A stretch of 64,000 bases of DNA from an uncultured Gemmatimonadales bacterium (GCA_963741945.1 CAVUKA010000001.1:800001-864000), one strand, 5' to 3'; positions 16,840 to 57,771 are shown, counted from the first letter of the stretch. A program made the numbers and translations. Notes: a model not told the origin generated them from the letters alone.

Positions 16840-16881
16840 TCTGCCGCGCAGCACCGGGAGATCCCCGGGGGGCGGTCAGAC

Positions 16882-17216: not shown

Positions 17217-17368
17217 GGGGCCCTCCGGGAGAAGCGGACGAGCATTGCCTCACCTCACCGTGCGGTAGGGAACGGAGAGCGGGGTTTCCTGTACACCACC
17301 GCCACCCCCCGCCTATCTTGATCGAAACCCGTCAAAAGCCATCCCCCGCAGCCGGAGCAGATCCCGGA

Positions 17369-30268: not shown

Positions 30269-31573
30269 ATGCACAGACCACTCGCAGTGTTCGCCCTCGC
30301 GCTCGGCACCCTCGCCGCCGCCGCCCCGCTCGCCCCGCTCTCCGCGCAGCTCGATGCCACGGAGCGGCAGATCTCCACCTACATCCACGACCATGAGGAG
30401 GACGGCATCGACCTGCTCGCCCGCCAGGTCCGGATCGGAAGCGGGACGCAGGACACCGCCGGCATCCGTCGCCTGGCCGGGATGATGACGCCGGTGCTCG
30501 AGGAGCTCGGATTCGACGTGCGCTGGATCCCGGGAGGCGACACCGGGCGCGCCGGCCACCTCGTCGCCGAGCGCACCGGGCCCGTCGGCAAGCGCGTCCT
30601 CCTCATCGGCCACCTGGACACGGCGCTCGAGGGCGAGGGGTGGTTCGAGCGCGACGGGATGACGGCCCGGGGTCCGGGCGTCAACGACATGAAGGGCGGC
30701 AACACGGCCATTCTCATGGCGCTCCGGGCGCTCCACGCCGCGGGCGCGCTCGAAGGCCGCACCATCCGCGTCATCTTCACCGGCGACGAGGAGTCCCCCG
30801 GTGAGCCGCTGGCGAGCGCGAGGGCGCCGCTGGTGGCGCTCGCCGACTCCAGCGACGTGGCGCTGGAGTTCGAGACCGCCATCGCCGGCGACGAGCACGA
30901 CTACGCCAGCACGGCCCGCCGCGGCTCCACCACCTGGCTGCTGGAAGTCGGCGGGAACACCGCCCACTCCTCCGGCATCTTCTCCCCAGGCACCGGCGCG
31001 GGCGCGGTGTTCGAGGCCGCCCGCATCCTGGACACGTTCTACACCGAGCTGAAGGGCGAGCAGTACCTGACGTTCAACCCCGCCGTGATCGTGGGCGGCA
31101 CGGATGTGGAATACCACCCCGAGACCGTGCGTGGCAGCGCGTCGTCCAAGACCAACATCGTGCCGCAGCGCGTGGTGGTACACGGGGGGATCCGGACCAT
31201 AAGCGACGAGCAGCTCGCCAGCGCCCGGCGTCGCATGGAAGCCATCGTCGCCCGGCACCTGCCGGAGACCACCGCCACCATCACGTTCTCCGACGGCTAC
31301 CCCGGCATGCCGCCCACCGCCGGAAACCGGGAGCTGCTGGCGCTCTTCGATCGGGCCAGCCGCGACCTGGGCGAGGGACCGGTGGTGGAGTTCGACCCGG
31401 GCGGACGCGGCGCGTCCGACCTCTCCTTCGCCGCCGGCCACGTGGCCCTCGGCGCCCTGGGCGGGCTCGGCGTCGAAGGCGAGGGCGCGCACACGCCCGA
31501 CGAGGACGTGGACCTCACGTCCCTCGCCAAGTCCGCGGAGCGCGCGGCGCTGCTGATCTACCGGCTCCGGTAG
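30269..31573 (+). CDS. M20/M25/M40 metallopeptidase (carboxypeptidase G2-like), secreted
   Basis: Signal peptide; LIGHLDT, GPGVNDMKGG, TGDEE, GGRGASD, AHTPDE. Confidence 0.9.
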   Translation: MHRPLAVFALALGTLAAAAPLAPLSAQLDATERQISTYIHDHEEDGIDLLARQVRIGSGTQDTAGIRRLAGMMTPVLEELGFDVRWIPGGDTGRAGHLVAERTGPVGKRVLLIGHLDTALEGEGWFERDGMTARGPGVNDMKGGNTAILMALRALHAAGALEGRTIRVIFTGDEESPGEPLASARAPLVALADSSDVALEFETAIAGDEHDYASTARRGSTTWLLEVGGNTAHSSGIFSPGTGAGAVFEAARILDTFYTELKGEQYLTFNPAVIVGGTDVEYHPETVRGSASSKTNIVPQRVVVHGGIRTISDEQLASARRRMEAIVARHLPETTATITFSDGYPGMPPTAGNRELLALFDRASRDLGEGPVVEFDPGGRGASDLSFAAGHVALGALGGLGVEGEGAHTPDEDVDLTSLAKSAERAALLIYRLR

Positions 31574-31580
31574 CCGCCGG

Positions 31581-31714
31581 GGAGGCGCGAAGAGCGCGGA
31601 GGAACACCGTCACGCGGAGGCGCGAAGAGCGCGGAGGAACACCGTCACGCGGAGGCGCGAAGAGCGCGGAGGAACACTGTCACGCGGAGGCGCGAAGAGC
31701 GCGGAGGGACACCG
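31581..31714. repeat. 35-bp tandem repeat, ~3.8 copies
   Basis: Unit GGAGGCGCGAAGAGCGCGGAGGAACACCGTCACGC at 31581, 31616, 31651 and partial at 31686; no spacers. Confidence 0.9.
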
Positions 31715-31785: not shown

Positions 31786-32136
31786 ATGAGCAAGAAGGGG
31801 AAGCGGAAGAAGAAGCGGGCGGAGGAGGGGGCGGCGCCGGAGCCCGCCACCCCTCGCACGCTGCACTCCGCCATCGTCGCCGAGGAGCTGGACCTCCACG
31901 GACTGGGCGCGGACGAGGCCGAGCGGCGGCTTCAGATGTTCCTCGAGCGCATGGCCGCCACGGCGCCCGGCGAGGTGGTGCGGGTGATCACGGGCCGAGG
32001 GCTCGGCTCGCCCGGGCCGCCCATCCTCCAGGGCGTGGTCCGCGACGCCCTGAACGGCTGGCTCGCCCGGCGCGTCGACGACTGGGCCGTGGACGTGGGC
32101 AGCGGCGCGTATCTCGTGCGCGTGAAAGGCCGCTGA
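31786..32136 (+). CDS. Smr/MutS2-domain endonuclease
   Basis: ELDLHGL...EA, VRVITGRG..S, G.GAYLV. Confidence 0.85.
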   Translation: MSKKGKRKKKRAEEGAAPEPATPRTLHSAIVAEELDLHGLGADEAERRLQMFLERMAATAPGEVVRVITGRGLGSPGPPILQGVVRDALNGWLARRVDDWAVDVGSGAYLVRVKGR

Positions 32137-32155
32137 CGACCGGGGTTGGCCGGGC

Positions 32156-32389
32156 GTCGCCCTCGTCGCCCTCGTCGCCCTCGTCGCCCTCGTCGCCCTC
32201 GTCGCCCTCGTCGCCCTCGTCGCCCTCGTCGCCCTCGTCGCCCTCGTCGCCCTCGTCGCCCTCGTCGCCCTCGTCGCCCTCGTCGCCCTCGTCGCCCTCG
32301 TCGCCCTCGTCGCCCTCGTCGCCCTCGTCGCCCTCGTCGCCCTCGTCGCCCTCGTCGCCCTCGTCGCCCTCGTCGCCCTCGTCGCCCTC
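32156..32389. repeat. Perfect 9-bp microsatellite (GTCGCCCTC)x26
   Basis: 234 bp of uninterrupted repeat. Confidence 0.95.
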
Positions 32390-32628
32390 GTGCTGGGCGA
32401 CTCCGTCTCGAACGGCCATGGCCATGCCCCGGAGTCGACCGCACCGTGACGGGGTGCGCGGGAGATCACCCACACGTCGGGCGCGGGATCACGCATGGTT
32501 GAGGAATCGTCATATCCGCCGAGAAGTGCGCATGCGTGGCGGACACGTGGACGGGCGGTGAATCATCCGTGGTATCCACCAAAAAACGCCGCGGCGTCCC
32601 GGCGGGCGTGACTCGGGGGAAATAATCG

Positions 32629-46330: not shown

Positions 46331-46358
46331 TTGGCCGCCGCCAGAAGCGGATTTGAGA

Positions 46359-46458
46359 CGACGTTTCCAGGTTGGCGACCCGCCACGCCGGGACCTTCAG
46401 CGCGAGACCACCTTCGAACCTGCACTTCCGTCACCAGCTCCAACACGGCCGCGGCGGG
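46359..46458 (-). repeat. Truncated attC-like site (TAAC lost; side arm and second R box missing)
   Basis: ACGTTTCCAGGTTGGCGACCCGCC...CACCTTCGAA...CACCAGCTCCAACACGGCCGCGGCGGG closely matches the copy at 50239. Confidence 0.75.
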
Positions 46459-46762
46459 CCTTTCGACCGCCCCGACTATCACCTTGACTCTGTGGTCGGC
46501 AATGGCAGCTGCCCCATCATCGACGCGAGTGTCTCGGCAACGGCCGCGGGGCTCCTCCTTGCCAGCGGTAGTTCAGCAACCCTGCCCCATTCTGGAGGGT
46601 TCCGAACGGCCAGAACCCACTCTGCATCCCGGGTTCAGCCCCTTTGATACAATGGAGGGGGAAGCCCCTGTTTGTTCTCCGACGTGCGTCGCCTTGTTTC
46701 CCTGATCACTGCCAGCGCTCCCCTCACCCTCTCCGCCAACGAGGGGGCCGCATGCATGGACC

Positions 46763-47362
46763 CTACGTTCCCCCGCAATTCCGCTGGACCTTGACAACCT
46801 CCGCCACCCGCGCCCCCAATTTCCGACCTTTCGCCATGAAGATTGACTCGATCGACGCGGCCACGGCCGTGTCCCCGAACGGGGGCTCGACGGTGACGGC
46901 GGATGCACCGAATGCCTCCGTCCAGGTCGGCCCGCCAACGACGAGCATGTTATAGATCAGCATCGCCCGGAGGATGGCGAGTTGGACGGTCTCTTCGCCC
47001 GCAGAGATTCCTCCCGCCGTGACAAACGCCGCCCCAACCTTGTCCCGCATCTCGCCGTTGAACGGAAGCGATCCCAGAAACTCCACAATCGGGGCAGCGA
47101 TGTTGGCCGCGTGGACGGGGCTGCCGACGATCAGAGCGTCAGCCCATAGCACGTCGACCCGCGAGGCGCTATCAACGGATAACAGCCGTACATCGGCCCC
47201 CGCGATACCGCGGGCTCCGGCTGCGACGGCTTCGGCCATTCGTTCCGTGTGCCCCGTCTCGCTGTGGTAGACGACCAGGATGTGCTGACACGCGGCCGCT
47301 TCCGGCAACGCAGAAAGCAGAATACCCATAACCCATAGCCTGCGTGCTGCCCGCCAAGTCAT
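46763..47362 (-). CDS. Flavodoxin-fold NAD(P)H:quinone oxidoreductase (WrbA-like) with signal peptide
   Basis: LVVYHSETGHTE.MAEAVA.GA, ALIVGSP, KVGAAF.T.G..S.GEE. Confidence 0.8.
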   Translation of the reverse strand: MTWRAARRLWVMGILLSALPEAAACQHILVVYHSETGHTERMAEAVAAGARGIAGADVRLLSVDSASRVDVLWADALIVGSPVHAANIAAPIVEFLGSLPFNGEMRDKVGAAFVTAGGISAGEETVQLAILRAMLIYNMLVVGGPTWTEAFGASAVTVEPPFGDTAVAASIESIFMAKGRKLGARVAEVVKVQRNCGGT

Positions 47363-47584
47363 AGGGTCCTCCCCGGTTTGACGGAATCCCACGTGTGCCT
47401 CCAACCCCGGCACCCTTCTGACGGGGCCGCCCGCGCCTGCGGCGCTCCGAACCTCGACCTCACCCTCCGACGGGAGTGTCCATTTTCAAACCGTTGCTGC
47501 TGTCCAGCTTACAACCGATGGTGACACCGTCGCCTATCCTCGCCAGCACCTCTCCCGCCCACGGAAATATTGTCCGCTCGTTCT

Positions 47585-48082
47585 CTACCCTGCTATTCGC
47601 CACCGGGGCAACCACCGCTTCACACGGGCTCGATAGGCCTCGTATTCGCCGCCAAACGTCCGCTCCAGCGTCGGCTCCTCATAGGCGCGGACGAACACAT
47701 GGGCAACCCCAAGGAACAGCAGCGCATACGCTGCCAGGGCGACCGACCTGTAGACCAGCGCTGCCCCGAAGAGAGCCACTACCGCACCCAGGTACATGGG
47801 ATTGCGCACCCACCGATACGGTCCCGACACCACCAGTTGACGAGGAGAATCAAAGGGCGCAGGCGTCCCCCGCCCTACGAACGTAAACGCCAGCACGCAC
47901 CACACGGCAACCACCGCTCCTGCAATCAAGATCATGATCCCCACTGATTCGGCTATGCCTATGGCATCCGGCGGCGTGATCCCCGCCCAGCTCAGCACTC
48001 GAGCCGGAAGAAAGACCAAGAACAGAGCCACAAACAGCGATCCCCAGGTCAGAGTCCGGATCACGACGAAGATCGCATCCAT
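47585..48082 (-). CDS. Isoprenylcysteine carboxyl methyltransferase / PEMT family membrane protein
   Basis: G.GTPAPFD.P..LV.SGPYRWVRNPMYLG, EEP.L...FG..Y..YR..V.RW. Confidence 0.88.
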   Translation of the reverse strand: MDAIFVVIRTLTWGSLFVALFLVFLPARVLSWAGITPPDAIGIAESVGIMILIAGAVVAVWCVLAFTFVGRGTPAPFDSPRQLVVSGPYRWVRNPMYLGAVVALFGAALVYRSVALAAYALLFLGVAHVFVRAYEEPTLERTFGGEYEAYRARVKRWLPRWRIAG

Positions 48083-48182
48083 GCTCTCCCCTCTCTCTTC
48101 TCAGCGCCGATCGAATCCACCGCCTCTCCTCCTCGCCTGGCCCACCACCGCATCAAAGCGACCGCAGGCGCAGGATTATTTC

Positions 48183-48229
48183 GGCTAACATTCCCAGGTT
48201 GGCGACCCGCCGCGCCCAAGCATCCAGCG
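48183..48229 (-). repeat. Half of an attC-like site, fused to the IS110 remnant
   Basis: GGCTAACATTCCCAGGTTGGCGACCCGCCGCGCC...TCCAGCG; similarity stops a few nt before the transposase ATG. Confidence 0.8.
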
Positions 48230-49310
48230 GCGCACCATGCTGCACACGGGGATCGATCTGCATAAGCGCACCTGCGTTCTGGCCACGGTGGACGCCGACG
48301 GCGAAGTCGTGGCCGAAGCGGAGCTCCGAACCCGTCGGGCGGCCATCGCCCGCTACTTCGCGCAGCTCCCGCCGCACCGAGCCACAGTCGAAGCCACCAG
48401 CAGCTGGTACTGGATCCGGGACCTGCTGGAGGCCCACATGATCTCCGCTGAGCTCCGACCGCTCCGCGACGTGATGCGGACCCGGCTCCGCCTGATCCAG
48501 AAAGAGGTCGGGACTCGAAACAGCATTCACCGGCTCCCCGAGAAGCACAACGTTCGCAGTGTCGCGGACCTGCCGCCCATGGCCCAGCTCCAGGCCGCCT
48601 GCCACCGCGAGCAGAGGGAGCTTCTCCGGGAGCACGTCCGCCGACTCGAGAAGAGCCTCCACCCGCACCTGGTGCCTGACCCCGATGTCCAGCGGCTGCT
48701 TGCGATCCCCGGGATCGGCAAGGTCGGCGCCTGGAGGCAAGGACCGGCACCGGCACTCCAGGGACGGCAACAAATACCTGAAGATCGTCTTCTCGAACGC
48801 CGCGGTCCGCGCGATCCAGTACAACCCCGAGATCCGGAGCTGGTACGAACGGAAGGCGCGGAAAAAGAACCGGGCTGTGGCCGGGCTCTCGTCGCGAAGG
48901 AACTCGCTCGTATCGTCTACCATGTCCTCTCGAAGCGGGAGGACTTCAACCATCGCTTCAAAGGCATCCCGCTCCAGCGGCGGAAAAAGCAGGAGTGGCC
49001 ACGTCGGTCAAGCCCGGGCAGCTAACTGGATCGGCTTTCGCCGAGTACCGCCCCGTTTGATTGGGAAGACCGACGTCGAGCCGCCGGACGTATCTGGGAC
49101 CGCTCCGCAGAGCGACCGCTGAAATGAGCAGCGGTGAGCCCGAAATGGTGTTTGGACGCCACTCCACGTCCGATTCGATACCCACTCCGGCCCGGCCAGA
49201 CCTGCCGTCGCTCGCGGAATCGAGAAGCGTCGCACGATCGAAAAGCGAATCAGAATCTCTGATTCCGCAGAGGATCATCGTGCTCCTTGACGAAGGACTT
49301 GTTAATGGTG
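48230..49310 (+). mobile_element. IS110/IS1111-type element remnant with ~285-bp 3' non-coding end
   Basis: Transposase remnant; structured 3' end; outward TTGACG at 49287-49292; junction at 49309-49310 abuts a degenerate R box (TGTCAGGCGG). Confidence 0.65.
48237..49025 (+). pseudogene. IS110-family transposase with internal deletions and frameshifts
   Basis: GIDLHK (DEDD N-terminus), VEAT..WYW, L..IPGIG; GNKYLK..F..AA..A in another frame; A.VA.ELARI.YH.L. Confidence 0.88.
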
Positions 49311-49363
49311 TCAGGCGGTGTCCGCAAATCCAGGCCTTTCGCTCCGCAAACCGCCTCTCGCTC

Positions 49364-49393
49364 TTGAACTGCCGATCCCCTCCTGGGTATCAT
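49364..49393 (+). promoter_or_regulatory. Putative sigma70 promoter of the inverted TA cassette
   Basis: TTGAAC-N18-TATCAT, followed by AAGGAGG and ATG at 49412. Confidence 0.5.
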
Positions 49394-49411
49394 CCGGCCA
49401 AGGAGGATCTC

Positions 49412-49630
49412 ATGACCGAACTACTCAAGAAGGCTTTCGACGAAGCGTCCAAACTCCCCAGCGAGCAGCAGGACGCCATCGCCGCTCTACTCCTGGAGGA
49501 GCTCGAGTCCGATCGAAACTGGGATCGGACCTTTGAAAACTCCCAGGACGACTTGGCGAAGCTCGCGAACGAAGCCCTCGCCGAAGACGCACGAGGTGAG
49601 ACGGAAAACCTCGACCCGTCCAAGCTTTGA
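49412..49630 (+). CDS. Type II antitoxin (72 aa, acidic)
   Basis: MT.LL.KAF.EA.KLP...QD.IA..LLEEL...W...F motif; overlaps the toxin start. Confidence 0.8.
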   Translation: MTELLKKAFDEASKLPSEQQDAIAALLLEELESDRNWDRTFENSQDDLAKLANEALAEDARGETENLDPSKL

Positions 49631-49896
49631 CCTCCCGCACCACTTCATCTTTTCGGAAGGCCTATTCCTCACTTCCTACCGACGTCCAGGAGCGGGCTCG
49701 CGAGGCCTTCGACCTCTTCTCCGCCAATCCGGCTCATCCGAGCCTGCAGTTCAAGCAGGTTCACGCGACCGAGCCGATCTTCTCAGCCCGCATATCGCTC
49801 CACTACAGAGCCTTGGCCCGCCGCGCCGACGATGACTGGATCTGGTTCTGGATCGGCTCACACGCCGACTATGACCAACTCTTGAAGCGCCTGTAG
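49627..49896 (+). CDS. RelE/ParE-superfamily toxin
   Basis: F.K.Y..LP..VQ..AR.AF.LF..NP.HPSL.FK, S.RI...YRAL, WFWIGSHADYD. Confidence 0.85.
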   Translation: MTSRTTSSFRKAYSSLPTDVQERAREAFDLFSANPAHPSLQFKQVHATEPIFSARISLHYRALARRADDDWIWFWIGSHADYDQLLKRL

Positions 49897-49912
49897 CTCT
49901 GAAGCGGATGCC

Positions 49913-50065
49913 GCATAACGTTTCCAGGCTACCGACCCGGCCCACCATGAACTGCAGGGCCGCGGCGAGTTTCGAATCCACACGCGCCCACCGAACGGCG
50001 CAACATTGCGGGCCGGGTACTCCGCAGCGACCGAAGGGAGCGGAGGCGCTAGCCGTCTGTTATCC
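49913..50065 (-). repeat. attC-like site 6 (153 bp)
   Basis: + strand GCATAAC-GTTTCCA-GGCTACCG-ACCCGGCCC...GGGCCGGGT-[28 nt]-CGCTAGCC-GTCT-GTTATCC. Confidence 0.9.
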
Positions 50066-50238
50066 GCTGCGCCTCCATCAGCCGCCTCTCCGTCCGCGTG
50101 TTCGCGTGCCCGGCGAAGCAGTTCCGAGTGTCGAAAGAACTGCCGGACCCGAGGTGGCTCGCCTCGGCGGGGCCCGCCTGCTCGAGAACGTGATCAAAAT
50201 CAAATTGATTTCGCTGTCTCCGTCTTGGAGGCGCTTGC
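50066..50238. other. Cassette without a convincing ORF (~175 bp)
   Basis: Lies between two att sites; has its own terminal inverted repeat; contains hairpins and an AT-rich palindrome. Confidence 0.7.
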
Positions 50239-50389
50239 GGCTAACGTCTCCAGGTTGGCGACCCGCCGCGCCGATACCTCTAGCACGCGATCACCTTCGA
50301 AACAGCGGCAGCCTCACCAGCTTCAACACGGTCGCGGCGGGTTCTCCGGAGCGGCCGCAGGCCGCGCAGGCGCCAACCGTTTGTTAACC
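50239..50389 (-). repeat. attC-like site 5 (151 bp)
   Basis: GGCTAAC-GTCTCCA-GGTTGGCG-ACCCGCCGC...GCGGCGGGT-[28 nt]-CGCCAACC-GTTT-GTTAACC. Confidence 0.9.
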
Positions 50390-50418
50390 GCCGTGTTCTG
50401 CCCACAGCCTGGCGGACG

Positions 50419-50715
50419 TCACCTCCGGGCCTGCCAACGCTTCGGATCGCGGCGGGAATGGAAAACGGAGAGTACCACGATCTCTTCCGCGCTCACTCTG
50501 AAGAGAATGGCATATGGGAATCGCCGAACAACGGCCCTCCGGACATCCCGATACAGAATGGGAAATCGGAGAGGATTCCGCTGGATCGCTGAGAAAGCCG
50601 CATCGATGACGCGGACGAATTCCGCTCCCAAGCCCAAGGAACGCTCCGAATACCACGCTGCGGCTTCCTCGAGTTCGGCGTCGGCCGCAGGGCGAACAAC
50701 GAAGCGGCGGCTCAC
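50419..50715 (-). CDS. RelE/ParE family toxin
   Basis: P.A.AELEEA..WY....GLG.EF, RR..V.RFPY.I.F, V..VFH.RR.P..W. Confidence 0.9.
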   Translation of the reverse strand: MSRRFVVRPAADAELEEAAAWYSERSLGLGAEFVRVIDAAFSAIQRNPLRFPILYRDVRRAVVRRFPYAILFRVSAEEIVVLSVFHSRRDPKRWQARR

Positions 50716-50936
50716 CCGTACTTCTTGTACAACCGCTCCCGGACTTCCTCCCAGGGAATAGCAGAATCCGGGTCCGCTTCATGTTCTGCCAGCCTACGGT
50801 CCAGTTCCGCCTTCTGGGCCTCAGTTAATGGATAGGCGTCCGCGTCCGTAGCGATGCTGTCCCACAGGTCCTCCACCAACTGAATCCGCTCAGCGACCGA
50901 CAGCTTGAGCAGTTCCTCGATTGGTACACTCGACAT
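50712..50936 (-). CDS. Addiction-module antitoxin (TIGR02574-like)
   Basis: LS..ERIQLVEDLWDSI...LT..QK.ELDRRL......P...IPWEEV; AAGGAG RBS. Confidence 0.9.
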   Translation of the reverse strand: MSSVPIEELLKLSVAERIQLVEDLWDSIATDADAYPLTEAQKAELDRRLAEHEADPDSAIPWEEVRERLYKKYG

Positions 50937-51002
50937 CCGCAAGCTCCTTCCCTGAAGTCCCTTGCTCCTAATCTGCTACAGAAACGCCGAGTGGAACATG
51001 GG

Positions 51003-51153
51003 GGTTAACGTTTCCAGGTTGGCGACCCGCCGCGCCACAGCCTCCAGCGCTCGAACGCCTTCGAAACAACAACAATCTCACCAGCTTCATCACGGCTGCG
51101 GCGGGTTCTCCGGAGCTCGCGCAGCGAGCGGAGGCGCCAACCGTTTGTTATCC
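51003..51153 (-). repeat. attC-like site 4 (151 bp)
   Basis: GGTTAAC-GTTTCCA-GGTTGGCG-ACCCGCCGC...GCGGCGGGT-[51107-51134]-CGCCAACC-GTTT-GTTATCC. Confidence 0.92.
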
Positions 51154-51700
51154 GAAGCCCCACGGCGATGACCCCTCTTCAAGGCGCCCCGACTAGGCGC
51201 ATGAAAGGACGGAAAGCCGATTGCACCAGACGCCAGTAATACCCAAGGTCATCGGGCGATATCGACCAAGCGATCGTAACGAGTACTCCGATGGCGGTAT
51301 GGACCCAGGTAAACTTGCCTTGGCGCCTGGCTGTTTCTGCAAGGTAGTCTAACCTCCCACTGATGAACTTCTGTTGCTCCTCGCCTAACGAGTAACTTTC
51401 AAACAGTTTGGCCTCAAGTTCTTCAATTGAGTTGCGGATTTCGTCAGCTTCCTCAGCAGAAATCGGAGTGTCCTCAATCTCCTCTCTCGGCGAGAGCGTG
51501 AAGGATTCTTGGTATCTGGCCAGCTCCGTCCAGAGATCGCGGCTTTCCAATTCAAGCTTGAGGCGGTCGGCCCAATTCCAGCACAACTGCTTCTGCCCCT
51601 CCCAAGTTCCATTGTACACTTCTTCGATCCGCTTCTTCTTGTGGGTCCTCTAAACTATGTCGCGGTTTCTCTCTAAACTTTGTCGCGGCAAGGGCGTGAG

Positions 51701-52480
51701 CTAAGCGGCTTCAGAGTCAGGGGCCTCCTCCTGCTTATGGTGGCGGGTGCGGTAGGAGCGGCCGCGGAGCACGAAGTGGGTACCGCGCTCCAGGAGCCGA
51801 TCCAGAATCGCTTCCGCGAGATCGGCATCATGCAGCACCTGACCGAGGGCGGCCAGGGGTTTGTTGGTGGTCACGATCATGGGCCGGTGCTTCAGGTAGC
51901 GATCGTTGACCACCCGGTAGAGTACGTTGGCGGCATCGGCAGCGTAGCTCTGATAACCGAGTTCGTCGATCACCAGCACGTGCGGATGGACGTAGGGCTC
52001 GAGGGCTTCTTCCAGCCGTCCCTCCGCGGCTGCCTTCGAGAGGGCGCCGATCAGCTCGTCTGCGGTGGTGAAGCGGGCGTCGAAGCCGTTCTGGATGGCC
52101 CGATAGGCGATGGCCACGCCCATATGCGTCTTTCCCCGACCGGGCGGCCCCGTGAAGATCGCGGACCGCCCCTCGCTCACGAGCTCCGGCCCCAGCAGCG
52201 TGCCGAGCATCTGAAGGCGGACGCTGGTCTGGAAGGTGAAGTCGAATTCCTCGATGGTGCGGAGGAAGGGAAACTTCGCTTTGCGGACGTATCGGGTGAT
52301 CCGAGTCTGCGCCCGGTGGGCGATCTCCTCGGCGCAGAGTAGCTCGAGAAACGTGCGGTAGCTCATGCCCTCGTCCTCGGCCCGGATCACCAGGTCCGGA
52401 TAGAGGCGTCGGACCGTGGGCAGGTGAAGACGGTGGAGCATCGCATCCAGATCGTCCAGCGGCACGGGAGTGCTGATCAT
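51701..52480 (-). CDS. istB: IS21 helper ATPase IstB
   Basis: GPPGRGKTH Walker A, LVIDELGY Walker B, AILDRLL, G.SYR. Confidence 0.95.
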   Translation of the reverse strand: MISTPVPLDDLDAMLHRLHLPTVRRLYPDLVIRAEDEGMSYRTFLELLCAEEIAHRAQTRITRYVRKAKFPFLRTIEEFDFTFQTSVRLQMLGTLLGPELVSEGRSAIFTGPPGRGKTHMGVAIAYRAIQNGFDARFTTADELIGALSKAAAEGRLEEALEPYVHPHVLVIDELGYQSYAADAANVLYRVVNDRYLKHRPMIVTTNKPLAALGQVLHDADLAEAILDRLLERGTHFVLRGRSYRTRHHKQEEAPDSEAA

Positions 52481-53883
52481 GAGGCCGCCTCCTTCGCCAC
52501 GAGTCCCATCACGTACTCCGCCCCGATCAGGCGCTGAAAGAGCGCTCGCTGGAGCAGCCGGAGGAAACGCTCCTGGCCCACCTCCTCCAGCAGGGCGAAG
52601 AGCCGCTCGACGTCTCCTTTCCAGGTGTAAGGACGAGAGTGGATGAGTTCGGTCAGGTAGCCCTCACCGATGGGCCCCAGCTCCAGGATCCGCTCCCGCA
52701 TGAAGTAGAGGCGCTTCCGGGCGCCGGCCACGGCCGCCAGCTGCTCCGCCCTCTGGCCGGGCAGGTAGCTGGTAGTCCCCACTTTGGGAAAGCGTGGGTG
52801 GGTGGCCTCGAAGCGGGCACCGGTCGTGACGATCCGGACCCGGTCCGGGTACAGGTGCAGCGTGGCCGGAATCCCGCACGCCCCCGCCGGCATAGCGTAG
52901 CGGACTCCCTGGAAATCCACGAGGGCCGTGGGACCCACATGCACGGCGTAGCGCAGCCCGTATTCTGTGGGCGCAATGGCCAGCGGCTTCATGCGGGCCT
53001 GTTCGGTCACGAGCCGGAGCTTTGGGATCTCCTTCGTGGCGCGGGACGGCCGCTCCTCATTCACCCCCAGCAGCCACTCAAGGAGCTGACGGGGGAGGTC
53101 GTGATCGAGATCGGCGAAGCGGCGGGCTCGGAAGAAGCTCCGCTTCACCCAGCCCACAAGATTCTCCACCGAACCCTTCTGCTCGGGACTCCGCACCGCG
53201 CACAGCTCGATGGTGAAGCCGTAGTCGATGGCCACCTGCGCCAGGGTCGAGTTCCAGATCGGCCGGTCGCCGTCCCGGCCCACCACCACGGTCTTCGGAT
53301 TGTCGAAAACTACCCGGAGCGGCACGCCCCCCGAGTGCTCGAAGGCCGCGAGCAGCGCGCGCACCAGCGATTCGATCCGCTCGTCCGGCACGATCACCAC
53401 CCACACCCACCGCGAGTACTTTAGCCGGAAGGCCGCGAAGTGGACCCGCTTCTTCCGCCCGTCCAGCAGCCGGACGTCGGCCTGCCCGAAGTCGAACTGG
53501 GCGAACTCCCCCGCTACCCCCTCGAACCGCACCATCAGCTCCGCCGGCAGCTTCCCCTTCTCCAGCCGAAACACCCGATAGAAGGTGCTCTCGGCGAGCT
53601 GAACTCCTTCGTCACGAAGCAAGCGAAGGTACTCCAGCGGTGGAGCTTCCGGATCCTCCGCGATCAGATCCACCAGCCGCTGCTTCACCGCTGACCTCAC
53701 TGGCGGTCGGCCCACACCACGGCGCCGCCGCTCCGCCACGTCATCCCCGTCCTCTACCAGCGGCTCTTTGGCGATCCGCTGGATCGTCCGCACGGTGACG
53801 CCGAACTGCTCCGCAATCTGCTTCTTCTCTTCCCCCGCCTTCAGCAGAGCATGGACTGCATGTCGATCAATCATCCTGAGCAT
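52477..53883 (-). CDS. istA: IS21 transposase IstA
   Basis: N-terminal HTH; RFE...GE.AQFDFG, GGVP...FDNPK, P.QKG.VE..V. Confidence 0.95.
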   Translation of the reverse strand: MLRMIDRHAVHALLKAGEEKKQIAEQFGVTVRTIQRIAKEPLVEDGDDVAERRRRGVGRPPVRSAVKQRLVDLIAEDPEAPPLEYLRLLRDEGVQLAESTFYRVFRLEKGKLPAELMVRFEGVAGEFAQFDFGQADVRLLDGRKKRVHFAAFRLKYSRWVWVVIVPDERIESLVRALLAAFEHSGGVPLRVVFDNPKTVVVGRDGDRPIWNSTLAQVAIDYGFTIELCAVRSPEQKGSVENLVGWVKRSFFRARRFADLDHDLPRQLLEWLLGVNEERPSRATKEIPKLRLVTEQARMKPLAIAPTEYGLRYAVHVGPTALVDFQGVRYAMPAGACGIPATLHLYPDRVRIVTTGARFEATHPRFPKVGTTSYLPGQRAEQLAAVAGARKRLYFMRERILELGPIGEGYLTELIHSRPYTWKGDVERLFALLEEVGQERFLRLLQRALFQRLIGAEYVMGLVAKEAAS

Positions 53884-54251
53884 CCTCCCCGCCCTCCGAT
53901 TCTCAGAGCCCTGAGCCCTCGGAACGGCGGCATTCTACGCTGTGGATGCCCTCAACTGCGACATAGTTTGGAGAGAATCAGCGACAGAATTTCGGGAACT
54001 CACACTTCTCGCCGGGGCAGAATCGAGCCCAATCTTGGCCCCGGAGGTAGTCAAACTGGAAGTAGAAGTCCGGGTCCGTTTTCAGCACCAAGCGGGACAC
54101 CCTCTGTTCTGAACCGTGGAGACTGGCGACCTCCATCCACTCGAGTCGGGCCGGGTCGAGCCCCGCCCCTTCGACTACCTCGAAAATCTCGTTCTTTCGA
54201 CTAGTTAGAAGAACTTGATTCATCGCACTCCAACGCGTGTGCAGGGGTTTC

Positions 54252-54403
54252 GGATAACGTTTCCAGGTTGGCGACCCGCCGCGCCACAATCTCAAGCGCG
54301 CCACCGCCTCCCAAACTCCGACCTCGTCACTAGCTCCAGTGCGGCCGGCGGCGGGTTCTCCGGAGCGGCCGAAGGCCGCGTAGGCGCCAACCGTTTGTTA
54401 TCT
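54252..54403 (-). repeat. attC-like site 3 (152 bp)
   Basis: GGATAAC-GTTTCCA-GGTTGGCG-ACCCGCCGC...GCGGCGGGT-[28 nt]-CGCCAACC-GTTT-GTTATCT. Confidence 0.92.
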
Positions 54404-54426
54404 GACGTGCGCGCCCTCGAGGGTGA

Positions 54427-54678
54427 CTATGGCGTGGGCACCGAGGAGACATCTTTGTAGAGCGCGTCTGGAGCGAGATCGATATCACCTGGCCAAGTGA
54501 CGGTACCACTCTCCGGATCGACGCTCACCGAATTGAAGACGCTCTGATCCCGCCAAGCCGCGAACACGCCCTTGCCGACGAGTCCCGAAAGGTCCACCTC
54601 CCCTTCAGTGCCATCGGAGAACCGGATCCAAAGCCGGTAGTTCGGCCGCGTCTTCGCCTGCTCGATTCGATACAGCAT
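54427..54678 (-). CDS. DUF2442 family protein (putative antitoxin partner of DUF4160)
   Basis: Y.L...FSDG..G.VDL.....GVF....D...F..V......TV.WP...DLAPD.LY. Confidence 0.85.
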   Translation of the reverse strand: MLYRIEQAKTRPNYRLWIRFSDGTEGEVDLSGLVGKGVFAAWRDQSVFNSVSVDPESGTVTWPGDIDLAPDALYKDVSSVPTP

Positions 54679-54686
54679 TTTCGCCC

Positions 54687-54947
54687 TCAGTTCAGAGGAT
54701 CGATCTTCCCGGGCGCCTCGTGCGCCTGCGCTCGCCTCCACGCCTCCGCCAACTCCCTCTGGTGCAAACTGGCCCATTCCATCACCAGACCCAAGGCTCT
54801 CGGCGGCAAACTCCCTTCCAACACCGACAGATCCTCAATCCTCACCAGAGCTTCCGCTCCGCCGTACCGCGCATGGAAATGCGGCGGCGCGTGGTCGCGG
54901 AAGTACATGTAGATCGAGATGCCGAAGAACTCCGAAACCTTTGGCAA
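54687..54947 (-). CDS. DUF4160 family protein (putative toxin)
   Basis: MP..S.FFGI.IYMY..DH.PPHFHA.Y, G.LP..AL.LV.EWA..H..EL...W. Confidence 0.88.
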   Translation of the reverse strand: MPKVSEFFGISIYMYFRDHAPPHFHARYGGAEALVRIEDLSVLEGSLPPRALGLVMEWASLHQRELAEAWRRAQAHEAPGKIDPLN

Positions 54948-55012
54948 TACACCTCCGCCTCTAACGAGATCTCCGGCATCTTCGAAACTACCGCGAAGCC
55001 GAAGCGCATGTC

Positions 55013-55167
55013 AGATAACGTTTCCAGGTGAGCGACCCCGCTACCACGACCTCACCTGGCGCCGCCTCCTTCGAAACTTCCCGACATCCTTTGAGCAGCG
55101 CCAGCACCTGTCCGCGGGGTACTCCGAAGCGACCGAAGGGAGCGAAGGCGCTCACCGTTTGTTATCT
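55013..55167 (-). repeat. attC-like site 2 (155 bp)
   Basis: AGATAAC-GTTTCCA-GGTGAGCG-ACCCCGC...GCGGGGT-[28 nt]-CGCTCACC-GTTT-GTTATCT. Confidence 0.92.
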
Positions 55168-55574
55168 GAAGCCCCGTTCCCACCCGTCGGATCAGCTCGG
55201 ACCTGCGGGGGCTCACTGGAAAGTGGCTGGTTCACCAGATCCCAAGCCACGTCAATAAACTCCACTTCGAACCAGCGGTTGAACGTCTTCCAGTCCCGTT
55301 TCTTCGGCCATAGCGCCGGATCTGTATACCAGCTGTCGAGAGCGATCTCGAACATCAGATCGAAGTTGTCCCGGATCCAGGCTTCCGAATCCGGCGTCAT
55401 GTCGAACTGCGGGATCAGGAACGCCTCCACGGCCTTCTCCGCGACTTCCTCACTCACCGGCGGTCCCGGTCCCGGGTCCGCCTCCCGCACCCAGTCGACG
55501 AATGGCTGCTTCGGCCGCAGCACGACGAGGCCACGATTCAGGAACCAGATCTCCCCACCGTCAGTTTCAGCCAT
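55152..55574 (-). CDS. Hypothetical cassette protein (NR...V.RPKQPF.DW family)
   Basis: 140-aa ORF filling the cassette; FE..L..W..D...WP..R....F..WF.V.F motif; stop codon lies inside the att site. Confidence 0.75.
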   Translation of the reverse strand: MAETDGGEIWFLNRGLVVLRPKQPFVDWVREADPGPGPPVSEEVAEKAVEAFLIPQFDMTPDSEAWIRDNFDLMFEIALDSWYTDPALWPKKRDWKTFNRWFEVEFIDVAWDLVNQPLSSEPPQVRADPTGGNGASDNKR

Positions 55575-55594
55575 CCGCTTTCCTGAGGGGTTTC

Positions 55595-55744
55595 AGATAA
55601 CGTTCAATGGTTGGCGACCGCCGCGCCGAACCTCCAGCGCTCTTCGATCTCTGAATCCAAGCAGCCCTTCCAGCATCAGCACACGGGCCGCGGCGGTACT
55701 CCGGAGCGAGCAACGCGAGCGCAGGCGCCAACCTAGTGTTATAC
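55595..55744 (-). repeat. attC-like site 1 (150 bp)
   Basis: AGATAAC-GTTCAAT-GGTTGGCG-ACCGCCGC...GCGGCGGT-[28 nt]-CGCCAACC-TAGT-GTTATAC. Confidence 0.92.
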
Positions 55745-55780
55745 GCAGTGCCCGCGCTGGGCCCTGGCCCGACCGACTCC

Positions 55781-56392
55781 TCAGCGCTTCCGTTTGAGCG
55801 TGCCCCACGCCGATACGAGCATCAGGTCATGACCAGCCTGGGCGAGGCTGAACTCTTCGGGATCGAATCCGTCTCCGAGCCATTCGATCTTCTCCCGCAC
55901 CCACTCTTCGAGCTCACCGATTGGAGTCCCGAGTGCTGCTAGCATTTCGGTATAGGCGTGGGGTCCACCGCAATCCTCTGGAGGGCCCCGACGAGCCCCC
56001 GCGACGACCATGGGCAGCCAGTCGAGGTCCGGATTGCCCTCCGGCTCCTCGATTTCTACAACGTGCCGCCACTCATCTCCCCAGTCGTACACGTACTCCA
56101 GCCGATCACCAGGGCCGAGGCCCAACCGGTCGAGACGCGCCTTGGTCGAATCCAAGCCCTCGGCCTCGTCATCCGGTGCCTCGTAGTGTTCCTCACCGAC
56201 CTGGAAGCTGTAGAGATGGTAGTCGTACCAGTCGAACAACAACTGGATGATTCGATGCAATTCGTGCAGGGTCGTCCGTTTCGGGAGCAGTACACGCCGC
56301 CAGATCCGGGGCTCGATGTCCTCGAGATAGATCTGCACCTGAAAATGGTCGTGGTCTGTCTTCACACGATCCGCCCGACGTGGCTGAATCAA
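55781..56392 (-). CDS. Plasmid pRiA4b ORF-3 family protein (first cassette)
   Basis: P.IWRR..LP...TL.ELH.IIQ..F.W...HL..F, Y.YD.GD.W.H.V..E, G.R..PPEDCGG; alternative start GTG at 56365. Confidence 0.9.
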   Translation of the reverse strand: MIQPRRADRVKTDHDHFQVQIYLEDIEPRIWRRVLLPKRTTLHELHRIIQLLFDWYDYHLYSFQVGEEHYEAPDDEAEGLDSTKARLDRLGLGPGDRLEYVYDWGDEWRHVVEIEEPEGNPDLDWLPMVVAGARRGPPEDCGGPHAYTEMLAALGTPIGELEEWVREKIEWLGDGFDPEEFSLAQAGHDLMLVSAWGTLKRKR

Positions 56393-56425
56393 GCTCTTTC
56401 CTCCAGCAGAAGCATGTCAGGCCAT

Positions 56426-56454
56426 TGCGTATAACTACTGCGTTATACTGCGTT
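56426..56454 (-). other. attI-like primary recombination site
   Basis: GTATAAC-TACTGC-GTTATAC perfect 7-6-7 inverted repeat (56429-56448); no att hairpin; TGCGTATAAC matches the far end of cassette 1. Confidence 0.75.
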
Positions 56455-56670: not shown

Positions 56671-57771
56671 TCACGCTGCGTCCAGCGGGTTCACGATCCG
56701 GGTCAGGTCGCCGCGGCTGACGTGGGTATAGATCTGGGTGGTGCGGGGGCTCGTGTGGCCGAGGAGCTCCTGGATGTGGCGGAGGTTGACGCCGGCCTCC
56801 AGGAGGTGGGTGGCGAAGCTGTGGCGGAGGGTGTGCACGGTGGCGTGCTTGCGTACGCCGGACCGGGCCAGGGCGCGCTCGAAGATCTTCTGCACGGACC
56901 GCGTGGTCAGATGGCGGCCGGGCCGGCCCCCGGGGAAGATCCAGTCGTCGGCGTGGAGGCGGGCAACGACGGGCTCGAGGGCGGCGGCCGCGGCATCGGC
57001 CAGCAGCGTGTAGCGGTCCTTCCTCCCCTTCCCTGCGCGGACACGGACCAGCCCTCGTCCGGAATCCACGTCGCCGACCCTGAGGCGTACCACCTCGCTG
57101 ACGCGGAGGCCGGCGGAGTACGCCAGTATCAGGGCCAGACGGTGCGTCGGGTTGGCGGGGGCGTCGAGGATGCGGCGCACTTCGTCGCGGGAGAGGACGG
57201 CGGGGAGCTGGCGCTCCCGCTTCGGGCGGCGGATCGGGTCCAGCGCGAGCGGGCGGCCGACGAGCCGCGCCAGGAGCCGGATGGCGCTGATCGCCTGGTG
57301 CTGGTAGGAGGTCGACCGGTCGTCGGCCTCGAGCCGGAGCAGGTGAGCGCGGACGTGCTCCGTCGACAGCTCGGTCGCGGCCTTCGGGAAAGCTTCGAAG
57401 AACCGACGGACGTGGCCGACGTAGTTCGTCCGCGTACGGGGGCCGTAGCCCTGGAGCCGGAGCTCTTCCGAGAGGCGCTGGAGGAGCGCCGCCGCCGGAT
57501 CGGTGCCGTTCGCCCGGCGAAACGGGACGCGGACCAGGTGCATGAGACCGGGGTCGACGCGGAAGCTCGCGTCGGGCGCCCGGAGCAGCGCGTTCAGCGC
57601 CTCCTCGGTGCGCGGCAGCAGCCACGCCGATCGGCCGGGGTCCCAGTGCCGGCCTGGGATCGAGCGGACGTGCCCGACCAGCCCCGCGTCATAGGGGAAC
57701 CGGACTTCGATCCGCGTTTCCGCGTCCATGAGCCAAACAGAGGTCGCCATGACCGAGTCTGAACCGGCCAC
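56671..57771 (-). CDS. Integron-integrase-like tyrosine recombinase lacking the IntI insertion, with an extra N-terminal HARP-like domain
   Basis: Intact catalytic residues: GLRVSE, GKGRKDR, HTLRHSFATHLL, LLGH, TQIYTHV; SAM-like core-binding domain (LRLQGYGPRT..NY, STSYQHQA.SAI); start may be 57729-57771. Confidence 0.9.
   Translation of the reverse strand: MAGSDSVMATSVWLMDAETRIEVRFPYDAGLVGHVRSIPGRHWDPGRSAWLLPRTEEALNALLRAPDASFRVDPGLMHLVRVPFRRANGTDPAAALLQRLSEELRLQGYGPRTRTNYVGHVRRFFEAFPKAATELSTEHVRAHLLRLEADDRSTSYQHQAISAIRLLARLVGRPLALDPIRRPKRERQLPAVLSRDEVRRILDAPANPTHRLALILAYSAGLRVSEVVRLRVGDVDSGRGLVRVRAGKGRKDRYTLLADAAAAALEPVVARLHADDWIFPGGRPGRHLTTRSVQKIFERALARSGVRKHATVHTLRHSFATHLLEAGVNLRHIQELLGHTSPRTTQIYTHVSRGDLTRIVNPLDAA

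Follow-up and report, generated by a model that had tools for sequence, protein, structure and literature searches.

A probable integron-type cassette array beside a tyrosine recombinase without the IntI insertion in an uncultured Gemmatimonadales bacterium

The window, i.e., the whole 64,000-nucleotide stretch of DNA that was analysed, contains a tyrosine recombinase gene, an attI-like site located 235 bp from it, and a row of at least eight cassettes separated by att sites (Table 1). The attI-like site displays perfect 7-bp inverted arms (7-6-7) and has its TAAC/GTTA core in common with the att sites, as read from the sequence; its junction with cassette 1 falls between AA and C of the AAC ending at 56435. 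The array consists of small co-oriented genes, including several toxin-antitoxin pairs, together with IS21 and IS110 insertions, and its G+C content is 61-65%, versus 66-74% in the flanking blocks. A sigma-70 consensus scan from the recombinase gene to the array revealed no promoter-like site. The IS21 element of cassette 4 is bordered by a 5-bp target duplication, CTTCT (51635-51639 and 54005-54009), and has its own inverted ends. An IS110-family transposase pseudogene (about 48237-49122) interrupts the att site of cassette 7, of which the left half alone is left (48183-48236). The array continues leftwards to about 46360, beyond the span covered by a preliminary description of this DNA, and the distal att site of cassette 8 is degenerate (46356-46690).

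Table 1. Recombinase gene, attI-like site, cassettes and att sites, with positions counted from the first letter of the window.
Feature	Position	Strand	Remarks
Tyrosine recombinase gene, 359 aa	56671..57750	-	HARP-like N-terminal residues 1-72, SAM-like and catalytic domains
attI-like simple site	56429..56448	-	GTATAAC-TACTGC-GTTATAC (+ strand letters); putative function
Cassette 1, PRiA4_ORF3-family gene	55601..56434	-	Own ends 56422-56435 and 55738-55750; stem 13, including position-11 wobble
Cassette 2, 140-aa ORF without family match	55019..55600	-	Own ends 55587-55601 and 55161-55175; stem 15
Cassette 3, DhiT/DhiA-like pair (DUF4160 and DUF2442)	54258..55018	-	Own ends 55004-55019 and 54397-54412; stem 16
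Cassette 4, ORF split by IS21 element	51009..54257	-	Own ends 54244-54258 and 51147-51161; stem 15
IS21-family element inside cassette 4	51640..54004	-	istA 53883..52477, istB 52480..51701
Cassette 5, addiction-module antitoxin family TIGR02574	50245..51008	-	Own ends 50994-51009 and 50383-50398; G·G mismatch at position 8, T·G at position 11
Cassette 6, 326 bp	49919..50244	-	Own ends 50226-50245 and 50059-50077; 1-nt offset pairing
Cassette 7	48189..49918	+	Antitoxin-like ORF and ParE-like toxin, both on + strand
Cassette 8, PEMT-like methyltransferase and flavodoxin-like ORFs	46362..48188	-	Outside the span of the preliminary description
att site 1 (attC-like)	55595..55744	+	+ strand = strand opposite genes
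att site 2 (attC-like)	55013..55167	+	
att site 3 (attC-like)	54252..54403	+	
att site 4 (attC-like)	51003..51153	+	
att site 5 (attC-like)	50239..50389	+	
att site 6 (attC-like)	49913..50065	+	

All seven pairs of cassette ends quoted in the preliminary description were found in the sequence where it had placed them, and the same match counts were obtained for cassette 1 (10/10), cassettes 2 and 4 (14/15), cassette 3 (15/16) and cassette 5 (14/16). Its main observation, that the flanks outside TAAC/GTTA find their partner at the opposite end of their own cassette rather than across the same att site, was indeed the unique best arrangement by permutation. Ungapped own-end matches at positions 4-16 amounted to 11, 11, 12, 11 and 11 of 13 in cassettes 1-5 and to 6, 4 and 5 of 13 in cassettes 6-8; other combinations of left and right ends gave 1-10 of 13, the values of 10 coming from cassettes 2 and 4, whose ends are related. 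Duplex energies, computed on 20-nt outer flanks with TAAC/GTTA left out, ranged from -9.5 to -19.3 kcal/mol for own-cassette ends (cassettes 1-8) and from -4.9 to -11.3 kcal/mol for the two ends of one att site, with a mean of -7.6 kcal/mol (sd 1.8) for the 56 other pairs. When the ends were shuffled, the observed energy sum was met by the true assignment alone among the 720 (cassettes 1-6), 5040 (cassettes 1-7) and 40320 (cassettes 1-8) permutations. The ends of cassette 6 do pair as claimed, but they need a 1-nt offset (4+4 bp, then 8-9 bp), and they gave the best value of the energy matrix (-19.3 kcal/mol). Cassette 7, described as degenerate, retains an outer stem of 11 positions (49904-49914 with 49315-49325, 9 Watson-Crick and 2 G·T pairs, read directly), which lies 10 nt away from the GTTA at 49301.

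The sequence of the stem varies among cassettes, while its pairing is retained: cassettes 2 and 4 differ by a double change that keeps the pairing (CAGATAAC/GTTATCTG versus CGGATAAC/GTTATCCG). A T·G wobble at position 11 recurs in cassettes 1-5 on the strand opposite the genes, which corresponds to A·C on the coding strand, and the rebuilt own-end stem measures about 14-15 bp, close to the size of a full Xer-type binding arm (11-13 bp in the Xer/Cre literature). The earlier view that these units act as cassettes whose ends belong together is supported. The name "terminal inverted repeat" given to these ends is, by contrast, misleading, as the matching ends appear to be the two halves of the cassette's own recombination hairpin. 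A transposon-type reading of the ends was rejected, these being the basal part of the attC hairpin of their own cassette, probably split on insertion between G and TT.

A crossover at the GTT core, as previously proposed, is supported by the switch of pairing partner, which occurs inside the invariant core, position 5 being already cassette-specific in the window. Cassette 5 reads GTTAA/TTAAC, with a position-5 mismatch at att site 4 in the array. Position 4 changes between neighbours in related arrays (GTTG versus GTTA), and pairs with the own end in 40/40 cassettes, the selection of which included position 4. That positions 4 and 5 are cassette-specific and pair with the own end points to an exchange that takes place within the GTT/AAC triplet alone, like that of integrons, with the R' box probably split between G and TT. 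A search for strain variants yielded no clean case and no usable shared cassette.

The consensus fold of the six att sites, of ~150 nt each, comprises 34 pairs, nine of them with compensatory changes, located in the L stem and the upper stem; the unpaired spacers are unequal on the two sides (6 versus 3 nt), as in attC sites. These elements display the features expected of attC, i.e., an imperfect palindrome, RYYYAAC/GTTRRRY outer boxes, inner boxes, an unpaired spacer and a variable top, and att motif counts in the window far exceed those in shuffles. An Rfam search returned 0 matches for the att sites, as no such family is present there. The longer, better-paired stem attributed to the circular form was also found by prediction: minimum free energy was lower in the circle by 6.7, 6.8, 9.4, 8.5, 7.0 and 7.6 kcal/mol (att sites 1-6). 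The predicted probability of a recombination-competent fold was 0.45, 0.89, 0.85, 0.15 and 0.44 in the array (att sites 1-5, 20-nt flanks) and 0.83-0.90 in the circle, a modest difference of at most six-fold, so that the advantage of integration over excision suggested in the preliminary description is hypothetical; these probabilities cover att sites 1-5, att site 6 having one enforced pair that is a mismatch. Regarding the strands, of which the non-coding (bottom) one is expected to fold more stably in integrons, the whole integrated att site was lower in energy on the coding strand at 4/6 sites of the window, and the outer stem favoured the non-coding strand in 6/8 cassettes. Among inter-cassette elements of relatives, the non-coding strand folded better in 13/13, and AAC:GTT was paired in the minimum-energy fold of the non-coding strand in 10/13, versus 2/13 for the coding strand.

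The recombinase, which is the only tyrosine recombinase within the 64-kb window, matches PF00589 (E = 1e-43), and its catalytic set (R216, K241, H306, R309, H332 and Y341) is invariant in 37 relatives in the family alignment. By both sequence and fold it is closest to the Vibrio integron integrase 2a3v, with XerA next. The IntI-specific insertion, of roughly 40 residues near patch III, is absent: the alignment to 2a3v is broken (query 265-285 against chain residues 177-239), 301 codons of IntI1 are needed for 257 query residues, GKGxKDR and LRHSFAT lie 61 residues apart versus 102 in IntI1 and four other canonical integrases, the "ALERKYP...W.W" insertion is missing, and the predicted structure has no extra helix at this position. 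The protein stays under the curated cut-offs of two integron-integrase models, TIGR02249 (208 bits, cut-off 265) and NF040815 (200 bits, cut-off 220). This additional domain near patch III is a defining criterion in the available parts of PMC4889954, PMC2426708 and PMC9668308. The recombinase also possesses an extra N-terminal domain of roughly 75 residues, absent from IntI1, which bears a weak resemblance to HARP and to the XPB N-terminal domain. Pfam HARP gave E = 0.054 with the window protein and E = 0.003 with a relative (P0064), both short of the cut-off, and Foldseek ranked SMARCAL1 HARP 4o66 best (E = 0.04, probability 0.95), the XPB N-terminal domain being also found with a probability of about 0.9, and none at E <= 0.001.

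The recombinase type, the stem and the position-11 mismatch recur in 16 other loci, belonging to Bacteroidota, Bacillota and Spirochaetota. Units with at least 9/10 own-end matches lie directly after the stop codon of the related recombinase in loci L002, L004, L005, L006, L007, L012, L014, L020, L024, L026, L030, L043 and L080, the first cassette being usually found 40-330 bp past the stop codon; in L021 a single unit was found, starting about 2 kb downstream of the recombinase gene, and in L028 and L032 the units are on its divergent side. Beside these relatives, 120 strong own-end pairs were counted, versus 44-62 per shuffle, and 51 of the 120 bear A·C at position 11, versus 21 pooled over five shuffles (about 4 each), i.e., a twelve-fold excess. 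Matches at positions 4-10 and 12-14 and membership of the A·C class served to choose the 40 cassettes tabulated from the 16 loci; their A·C at position 11 (40/40) therefore mirrors a selection criterion and only the A·C excess over shuffles is unbiased. Each of positions 5-9 and 12-14 is occupied by 3-4 pair types in these cassettes. One relative of the window recombinase, with an adjacent array, is located on a Chryseobacterium plasmid.

The region is thus probably a chromosomal integron-type array, composed of a recombinase gene, an attI-like site and at least eight cassettes, read on the minus strand, a reading which draws on the observed pairing of the ends with its statistics, on the att-site fold, on how the recombinase is built and on the recurrence elsewhere. 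Mechanistically, the single-stranded att site of ~150 nt would fold into a hairpin with a basal R stem (AAC:GTT), an unpaired spacer, an L stem and a branched top, and strand exchange would occur within the GTT/AAC triplet. Exchange at this place would make the outer half of one R-stem side move with the next cassette, and each R stem in the array would therefore be a two-cassette hybrid; in the excised circle, both ends of one cassette would meet and the perfect stem would be rebuilt. The neighbouring recombinase would carry out this reaction, probably on the folded non-coding strand, and the wobble and extra N-terminal domain may help in the choice of strand and structure, in replacement of the missing IntI insertion.

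Other origins were considered. An orphan att cluster (CALIN), made by a canonical integron integrase located elsewhere in the genome or lost, with an unrelated Xer-like neighbour, would be compatible with a recombinase devoid of the IntI insertion and with our view of 64 kb of a 1.41-Mb contig, and Cury et al. (2016), in the available part of their text, concluded likewise for such neighbours. Such an origin is nevertheless unlikely, given that the same recombinase type is flush with arrays in 16 other loci from three phyla, that these arrays share the position-11 A·C seen in 0/14 cassettes beside canonical integrases, and that the window holds no second tyrosine recombinase. The 10-19 bp inverted ends of each unit, as worded in the preliminary description, may evoke small transposons or MITE-like units with their own terminal inverted repeats. 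This is highly improbable: cassette ends are devoid of target-site duplications and always abut a conserved ~150-nt structured element at the invariant TAAC/GTTA, whereas a true insertion, the IS21 of cassette 4, shows both a 5-bp duplication and inverted ends of its own. As for chance matches in G+C-rich DNA, base composition and nothing more speaks for them, and they are refuted by the permutations (observed sum reached by 1/40320) and by the above excess over shuffles, both of strong pairs and of the A·C class.

Double-stranded Xer-like recombination has been proposed for dif-flanked modules on Acinetobacter plasmids. In the window, each boundary would then be built of two arms, one variable and one conserved (GGTTGGCG), with about 6 nt of spacer between them, and the T or G found at position 11 would define two kinds of site and not a wobble. 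The enzyme is indeed Xer-like where IntI has its single-strand-reading insertion, the attI-like site has an ordinary inverted 7-6-7 layout, and the position-11 identity (40/40, selected on A·C) suits base-specific reading equally. However, arms read by a protein should be conserved. Here, the bases at positions 5-10 and 12-14 change freely from cassette to cassette and in step with the opposite end of their own cassette, a pattern which points to base pairing. The unequal, attC-like spacers, the compensatory changes in the L and upper stems and the better-folded non-coding strand in 13/13 sites of relatives also argue against double-stranded exchange, which we consider quite unlikely. XerA and XerC/D do share with the window recombinase a catalytic domain without the insertion, the alignment to XerA 4a8e is in one piece, and Xer arms resemble the rebuilt stem in length. 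By contrast, Xer acts at dif on one double-stranded site per replicon, with distant half-sites devoid of co-variation, while the window harbours arrays of structured repeats. The Xer/dif or dif-module class (conserved 11-6/8-11 arms, Xer pair) was discarded, the outer arms being cassette-specific here and the recombinase gene single.

Within the integron-type reading, the own-end pairing principle is a known integron property, the split R' box and complementary cassette ends being already described in the available parts of PMC11014356 and PMC5371416. Canonical integrons, whether class 1 mobile or sedentary chromosomal (e.g., Vibrio cholerae), likewise present a tyrosine recombinase next to attI (a putative site here) and a co-oriented, mostly promoterless cassette array, attC-like imperfect palindromes with AAC/GTT boxes, unpaired spacer and variable top, an exchange inside GTT (probable here) with split R' box and complementary ends, and toxin-antitoxin cassettes, as well as IS110 and group II intron insertions in att sites. 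What is unusual here is the recombinase without the IntI insertion (61 residues, versus 102 in canonical integrases), its extra N-terminal domain (roughly 75 residues, lacking in canonical IntI1) and the stem of about 14-15 bp, with position 11 fixed as A·C/T·G; own-end runs were 4-13 bp in 14 cassettes beside canonical integrases, whose position 11 was A·T in 9 and A·C in 0. The window recombinase is moreover directed towards the array, whereas canonical integrases are directed away from it. Integrase and cassettes have the same orientation, as in the window, in the "reverse" integrons of Treponema (PMC3607928, available part). Archaeal integrons, according to the available part of PMC9668308, have attI directly downstream of intI, like the attI-like site of the window, but their IntIs carry the IntI-specific additional domain, unlike the window recombinase.

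A broader reading, which we put forward tentatively, is that of a second, widespread kind of integron (Gemmatimonadota, Bacteroidota, Bacillota, Spirochaetota), whose integrase would have lost, or never acquired, the IntI insertion that reads extrahelical bases, and whose HARP/XPB-like N-terminal domain would sense structure by reading the rebuilt 14-15 bp R stem with its G·T wobble at position 11. Such a wobbled R stem would be confined to the folded non-coding strand, once the two ends of one cassette have met. In a quick tree, canonical integron integrases branch, with weak support, from within the insertion-less enzymes, and this class could therefore resemble the integron ancestor. If this is true, it would have been left out by design of integron surveys which, in the available parts of their text, require the insertion. 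A link between the window recombinase family and units of Riemerella anatipestifer is only a lead: a gene, a 27-bp leader and a 140-bp attC-like 3' region insert there as a unit without homology, by a mechanism that the authors leave unresolved in the available part of PMC13148043. As compared by description, these units resemble the window cassettes, and this species belongs to the same family as Chryseobacterium.

The two ends of a given cassette were indeed found to match one another better than the two ends of a given att site do, as the preliminary description had claimed, and this was confirmed by a match matrix, by duplex energies and by permutations. Cassettes and att sites are numbered leftwards from the recombinase gene; the C of each AAC defined left boxes L0-L8, the G of each GTT defined right boxes R1-R8, and all left flanks were compared with all right flanks. 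Over positions 4-16, counted from the C:G pair of AAC/GTT, the own ends of cassettes 1-5 matched at 11, 11, 12, 11 and 11 of 13 positions, and every other combination at 1-10. The own ends of cassette 6 pair only with a 1-nt offset, and those of cassettes 7 and 8 are degenerate. Duplex energies, calculated on 20-nt flanks from which the invariant TAAC/GTTA had been taken out, ranged from -9.5 to -19.3 kcal/mol for own ends and from -4.9 to -11.3 kcal/mol for flanks facing each other across one att site, the remaining 56 pairs having a mean of -7.6 kcal/mol (sd 1.8). The observed energy sum was reached by the true assignment alone in 720, 5040 and 40320 permutations.

The six intact att sites share one consensus fold of 34 pairs, 9 of them with compensatory changes. 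In this fold, a basal stem that pairs AAC with GTT is followed by 6 versus 3 unpaired bases, by an inner stem in which GGTTGGCG pairs with CGCCAACC, and then by a third stem and a side hairpin that is conserved among the sites. Integron attC sites are laid out in this way. A search of Rfam gave no match. Integron exchange is described, in the available passages of PMC11014356 and in the methods of PMC5371416, as taking place between the G and the TT of the R' box, the remainder of the box beginning the next cassette. Given this exchange point and the attC-like fold, what had been called "terminal inverted repeats" are better read as the halves of the basal stem of the cassette's own att site: the ends of one cassette do pair, but as parts of a single site, whose halves would lie apart in the array and be joined in the circle. 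Position 5 is already cassette-specific in the window, and in related arrays neighbouring cassettes differ at position 4, where own ends pair in 40 of 40 cassettes, so that the switch of partner is confined to the GTT/AAC triplet. To judge from these sequence comparisons, a crossover at the GTT core, as originally proposed, is thus probable. A search for shared cassettes in differing contexts returned only three att-site-centred matches, between two related loci (L026 and L028), and mapped no boundary. All six att sites carry the side hairpin as CCGGAGC...GGAGG (att site 1 being 55595-55744). On the strand opposite the genes, this hairpin creates a three-way junction on the 3' side, near the place of the lone extrahelical base of canonical attC sites.

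From a thermodynamic point of view, the strand opposite the genes was folded with DNA parameters and 20-nt flanks, and the predicted energy of the circular form was lower than that of the array form by 6.7, 6.8, 9.4, 8.5, 7.0 and 7.6 kcal/mol for sites 1-6. In the array form, AAC and GTT were not correctly paired in the minimum-energy fold of sites 1, 4, 5 and 6, and site 4 retained its outer stem only in a shifted and partial form. The predicted Boltzmann probability of a recombination-competent fold, computed as in PMC5371416 for sites 1-5 (site 6 was left out, one enforced pair being a mismatch), was 0.45, 0.89, 0.85, 0.15 and 0.44 in the array and 0.83-0.90 in the circle. By these computed energies, lower for the circle at all six sites, the premise of the earlier proposal holds: a circular cassette is predicted to have a better-paired stem than its integrated form. 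Integration might then be favored over excision, as was proposed.

The cassette array extends leftwards from the attI-like site, and most of its genes are carried by the minus strand. Between the cassettes lies a conserved element about 150 nt long, whose end motifs are present in 6 and 7 copies where 0.02 and 0.00 would be expected from shuffles. The cassettes lie where they had been placed, but the true array is longer than first described, since half and degenerate att sites were found farther left. The G+C content is 61-65% in the cassettes and higher, 66-74%, in the 4-kb blocks on either side. About half of cassette 6 is att site, and it may be a gene-less cassette. The IS110-family pseudogene breaks the att site of cassette 7, whose right half is gone; attC sites are known targets of IS1111-type elements. 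A scan for sigma-70 promoters and terminators from the recombinase gene to the array gave no match.

Features of the recombinase locus and its cassette array (window coordinates)
Feature	Position	Strand	Remarks
Tyrosine recombinase gene	57750..56671	-	359 aa
attI-like site	56429-56448		GTATAAC-TACTGC-GTTATAC; 235 bp downstream of recombinase gene
IS21 element (istA, istB)	51640-54004		Intact-looking; splits cassette 4; 5-bp duplication CTTCT; related terminal repeats
Cassette 6	49919-50244		326 bp
IS110-family transposase pseudogene	48183-49325		Two frames with N- and C-terminal domain remnants
Half att site	48183-48236		Right half missing; beyond the span first described
Degenerate att site	46356-46690		Beyond the span first described
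Cassette gene			PRiA4_ORF3 family
Cassette genes			Two ORFs without family match
Cassette genes			DhiT/DhiA-like pair
Cassette gene			Addiction-module antitoxin
Cassette genes		Opposite to other cassette genes	ParE-like toxin pair
Cassette genes			PEMT-like and flavodoxin-like

Own-end pairing is in itself textbook integron behavior: the preliminary description read the ends correctly in the main, and what it reports is an established property, no surprise to a specialist. Nor is the length of the own-end stem unusual by itself. The sample comprised ten class 1 cassettes, taken from three plasmids, and four that lie beside canonical integrases (L071, L072 and L075); with own-end pairs chosen by hand to fit the annotation, contiguous Watson-Crick runs measured 4-13 bp (n = 14). 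Since these 14 canonical cassettes show it, pairing past the 7-bp core is a general property; the published descriptions found speak only of the 7-bp box.

A distinctive feature was found at position 11, where cassettes 1-5 have their sole recurrent mismatch, T on the left against G on the right, i.e., a T·G wobble on the strand opposite the genes and A·C on the coding strand. The window and 80 further loci were scanned for GTT...AAC pairs lying 150-4000 nt apart and complementary at no fewer than 9 of the 10 positions 4-10 and 12-14, position 11 being unused; this stringency, together with shuffles, replaced a looser chain search (at least 7/10) that was too noisy. The scan returned 120 pairs, against 44-62 in each of five block-shuffles. 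The A·C/G·T class accounted for 51 of the 120, whereas the five shuffles together gave 21 such pairs; among perfect pairs, its share was 24 of 35. In the 40 tabulated cassettes, which were chosen by the scan criteria and by that very class, position 11 was A·C in 40/40, positions 5-9 and 12-14 each used three to four Watson-Crick pair types, and pairing dropped to 25/40 at position 15 and 12/40 at position 16, giving a median stem of 14. By contrast, none of the 14 canonical cassettes had A·C at position 11, and nine had A·T. In the class 1 arrays (L081-L083), the base at +11 after G|TT is A in 8 of 10 cassettes; an A is thus common at this position in both groups, but its partner is T in class 1 and C in the new family. 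In several class 1 cassettes, this A is that of the start codon region (…CATCATG…).

The recombinase itself departs from canonical integron integrases. In the fold search, the top match was the Vibrio integron integrase (2a3v; E = 7e-16), followed by XerA (4a8e). The alignment with 2a3v, the nearest solved relative, is broken, 21 query residues facing chain residues 177-239, and that with XerA is unbroken; in IntI1, 301 codons are taken up by what corresponds to 257 query residues. The segment "ALERKYP...W.W" of canonical integrases is missing from the window protein, and the spacing from GKGxKDR to LRHSFAT is 61 residues, compared with 60-65 in 18 related proteins and 102 in five canonical integrases. 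The recombinase also scored below the cut-offs of the curated integron-integrase models. On account of the alignment break, the motif spacing and these scores, the defining feature of IntI is considered absent. An N-terminal domain of about 72 residues is predicted with a pLDDT above 90; its top fold matches were the HARP domain of SMARCAL1 (E = 0.04, probability 0.95) and the N-terminal domain of XPB, and its Pfam HARP hits were sub-threshold. The fold and Pfam matches may be taken as two independent, if weak, pointers to one structure-specific DNA-binding fold. We infer mechanistic roles for both this domain and the position-11 wobble.

At least 120 related proteins were found, all with E <= 1e-85, most of them 344-437 aa long with at least 94% query coverage, and those listed are named at source recombinase, XerD or "integron integrase". 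The related loci compared share 28-47% identity among the matches listed, the relatives at 59-69% being known as proteins on short contigs. Pairs of the A·C class align as cassettes that begin immediately past the stop of the recombinase gene in L002, L004, L005, L006, L007, L012, L014, L020, L024, L026, L030, L043 and L080, the last being a Chryseobacterium plasmid; in L021, the only unit detected begins some 2 kb past the gene. In L028 (1-9750) and L032 (1-5060), array and recombinase gene are arranged divergently, as in classical integrons, and A·C is kept at position 11. The L032 recombinase has no N-terminal domain, only 20 residues preceding its SAM-like domain. The non-coding strand folded better in 13 of 13 inter-cassette elements of relatives; in the window it was favored for the outer stem in 6/8 cases and for the whole site in only 2/6. 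Self-BLAST for repeat arrays was mostly blank over 79 loci, as att sites lack sequence conservation, and an inverted-repeat listing of six loci showed no clear array in L003. In a more distant Gemmatimonadales relative (L019, 1090-2330), what comes after the recombinase gene is an IS91-like transposase gene, in place of an array; not all members of the wider family serve cassettes. On the Chryseobacterium plasmid, an IS110-family transposase and a group II intron reverse transcriptase occur among the cassettes (14263-18045), as they do in canonical integron arrays, and one inter-cassette element (13088-13380), at 305 nt far larger than the others, contains a number of long, perfect hairpins (-88 kcal/mol).

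A quickly built, unrooted tree of 78 recombinase cores, with N-domains removed and SH-aLRT as the only support, grouped the seven canonical integrases in one clade (support 99) and 12 array-bearing loci in a Bacteroidota clade (support 96). The latter clade also contains 12 rows without a detected cassette, of which four have less than 300 nt of downstream sequence and six have 1.0-1.8 kb. The window, L003, L002, L007 and L001 were placed beside the canonical clade with weak support (80); the insertion-less form might be ancestral, as far as so weak a tree can suggest it. Judging by the closest relatives, L003 being the nearest in this tree, the host probably belongs to Gemmatimonadota.

Insertion-less IntI-like recombinases were thus found flush against cassette arrays at 17 loci in four phyla; the arrays have in common a stem architecture and a position-11 mismatch, both lacking in canonical arrays. 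As far as sequence comparison can indicate, the best description of the system is an integron-type array that is served by an IntI-like recombinase lacking the insertion and having an additional N-terminal domain, and that bears a stem signature specific to this family. Integron surveys, in the parts available, select integrases by their additional domain (PMC2426708, PMC4889954, PMC9668308), and recombinases devoid of it beside attC sites were judged not to be integron integrases in the relevant passage of PMC4889954; the insertion was "not fully conserved" in the integron-like subgroup studied in PMC8138268. Our literature search, conducted outside subscription journals, found no account of an insertion-less recombinase class, of the position-11 mismatch or of a HARP-like integrase domain. 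If the enzyme is active, integron-type gene capture would be wider than current tools report, and the family would offer a natural intermediate for testing the origin of IntI from Xer-like enzymes. An active enzyme would also be a candidate for taking up cassette-like resistance units independently of homology in Flavobacteriales. A related recombinase and an array are present on a Chryseobacterium plasmid, and excerpts of a Riemerella study (PMC13148043) describe how a gene that has a 27-bp leader and ends in a 140-bp attC-like tail is inserted without the help of homology, by a mechanism called unresolved there.

Some other repeats were observed in the window. A lone GTT...AAC pair (12805-15441), 10/10 complementary, of the A·C class at position 11 and far from the array, could be due to chance or be a stray cassette. 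Around 40 tandem copies of the 9-nt unit CGTCGCCCT occupy 32092-32451, with a perfect center and decay at both ends, and four to five tandem 35-nt repeats, beginning GGAGGCGCGAAGAGCGCGGAGGAACACCGTCAC..., lie at 31543-31714.
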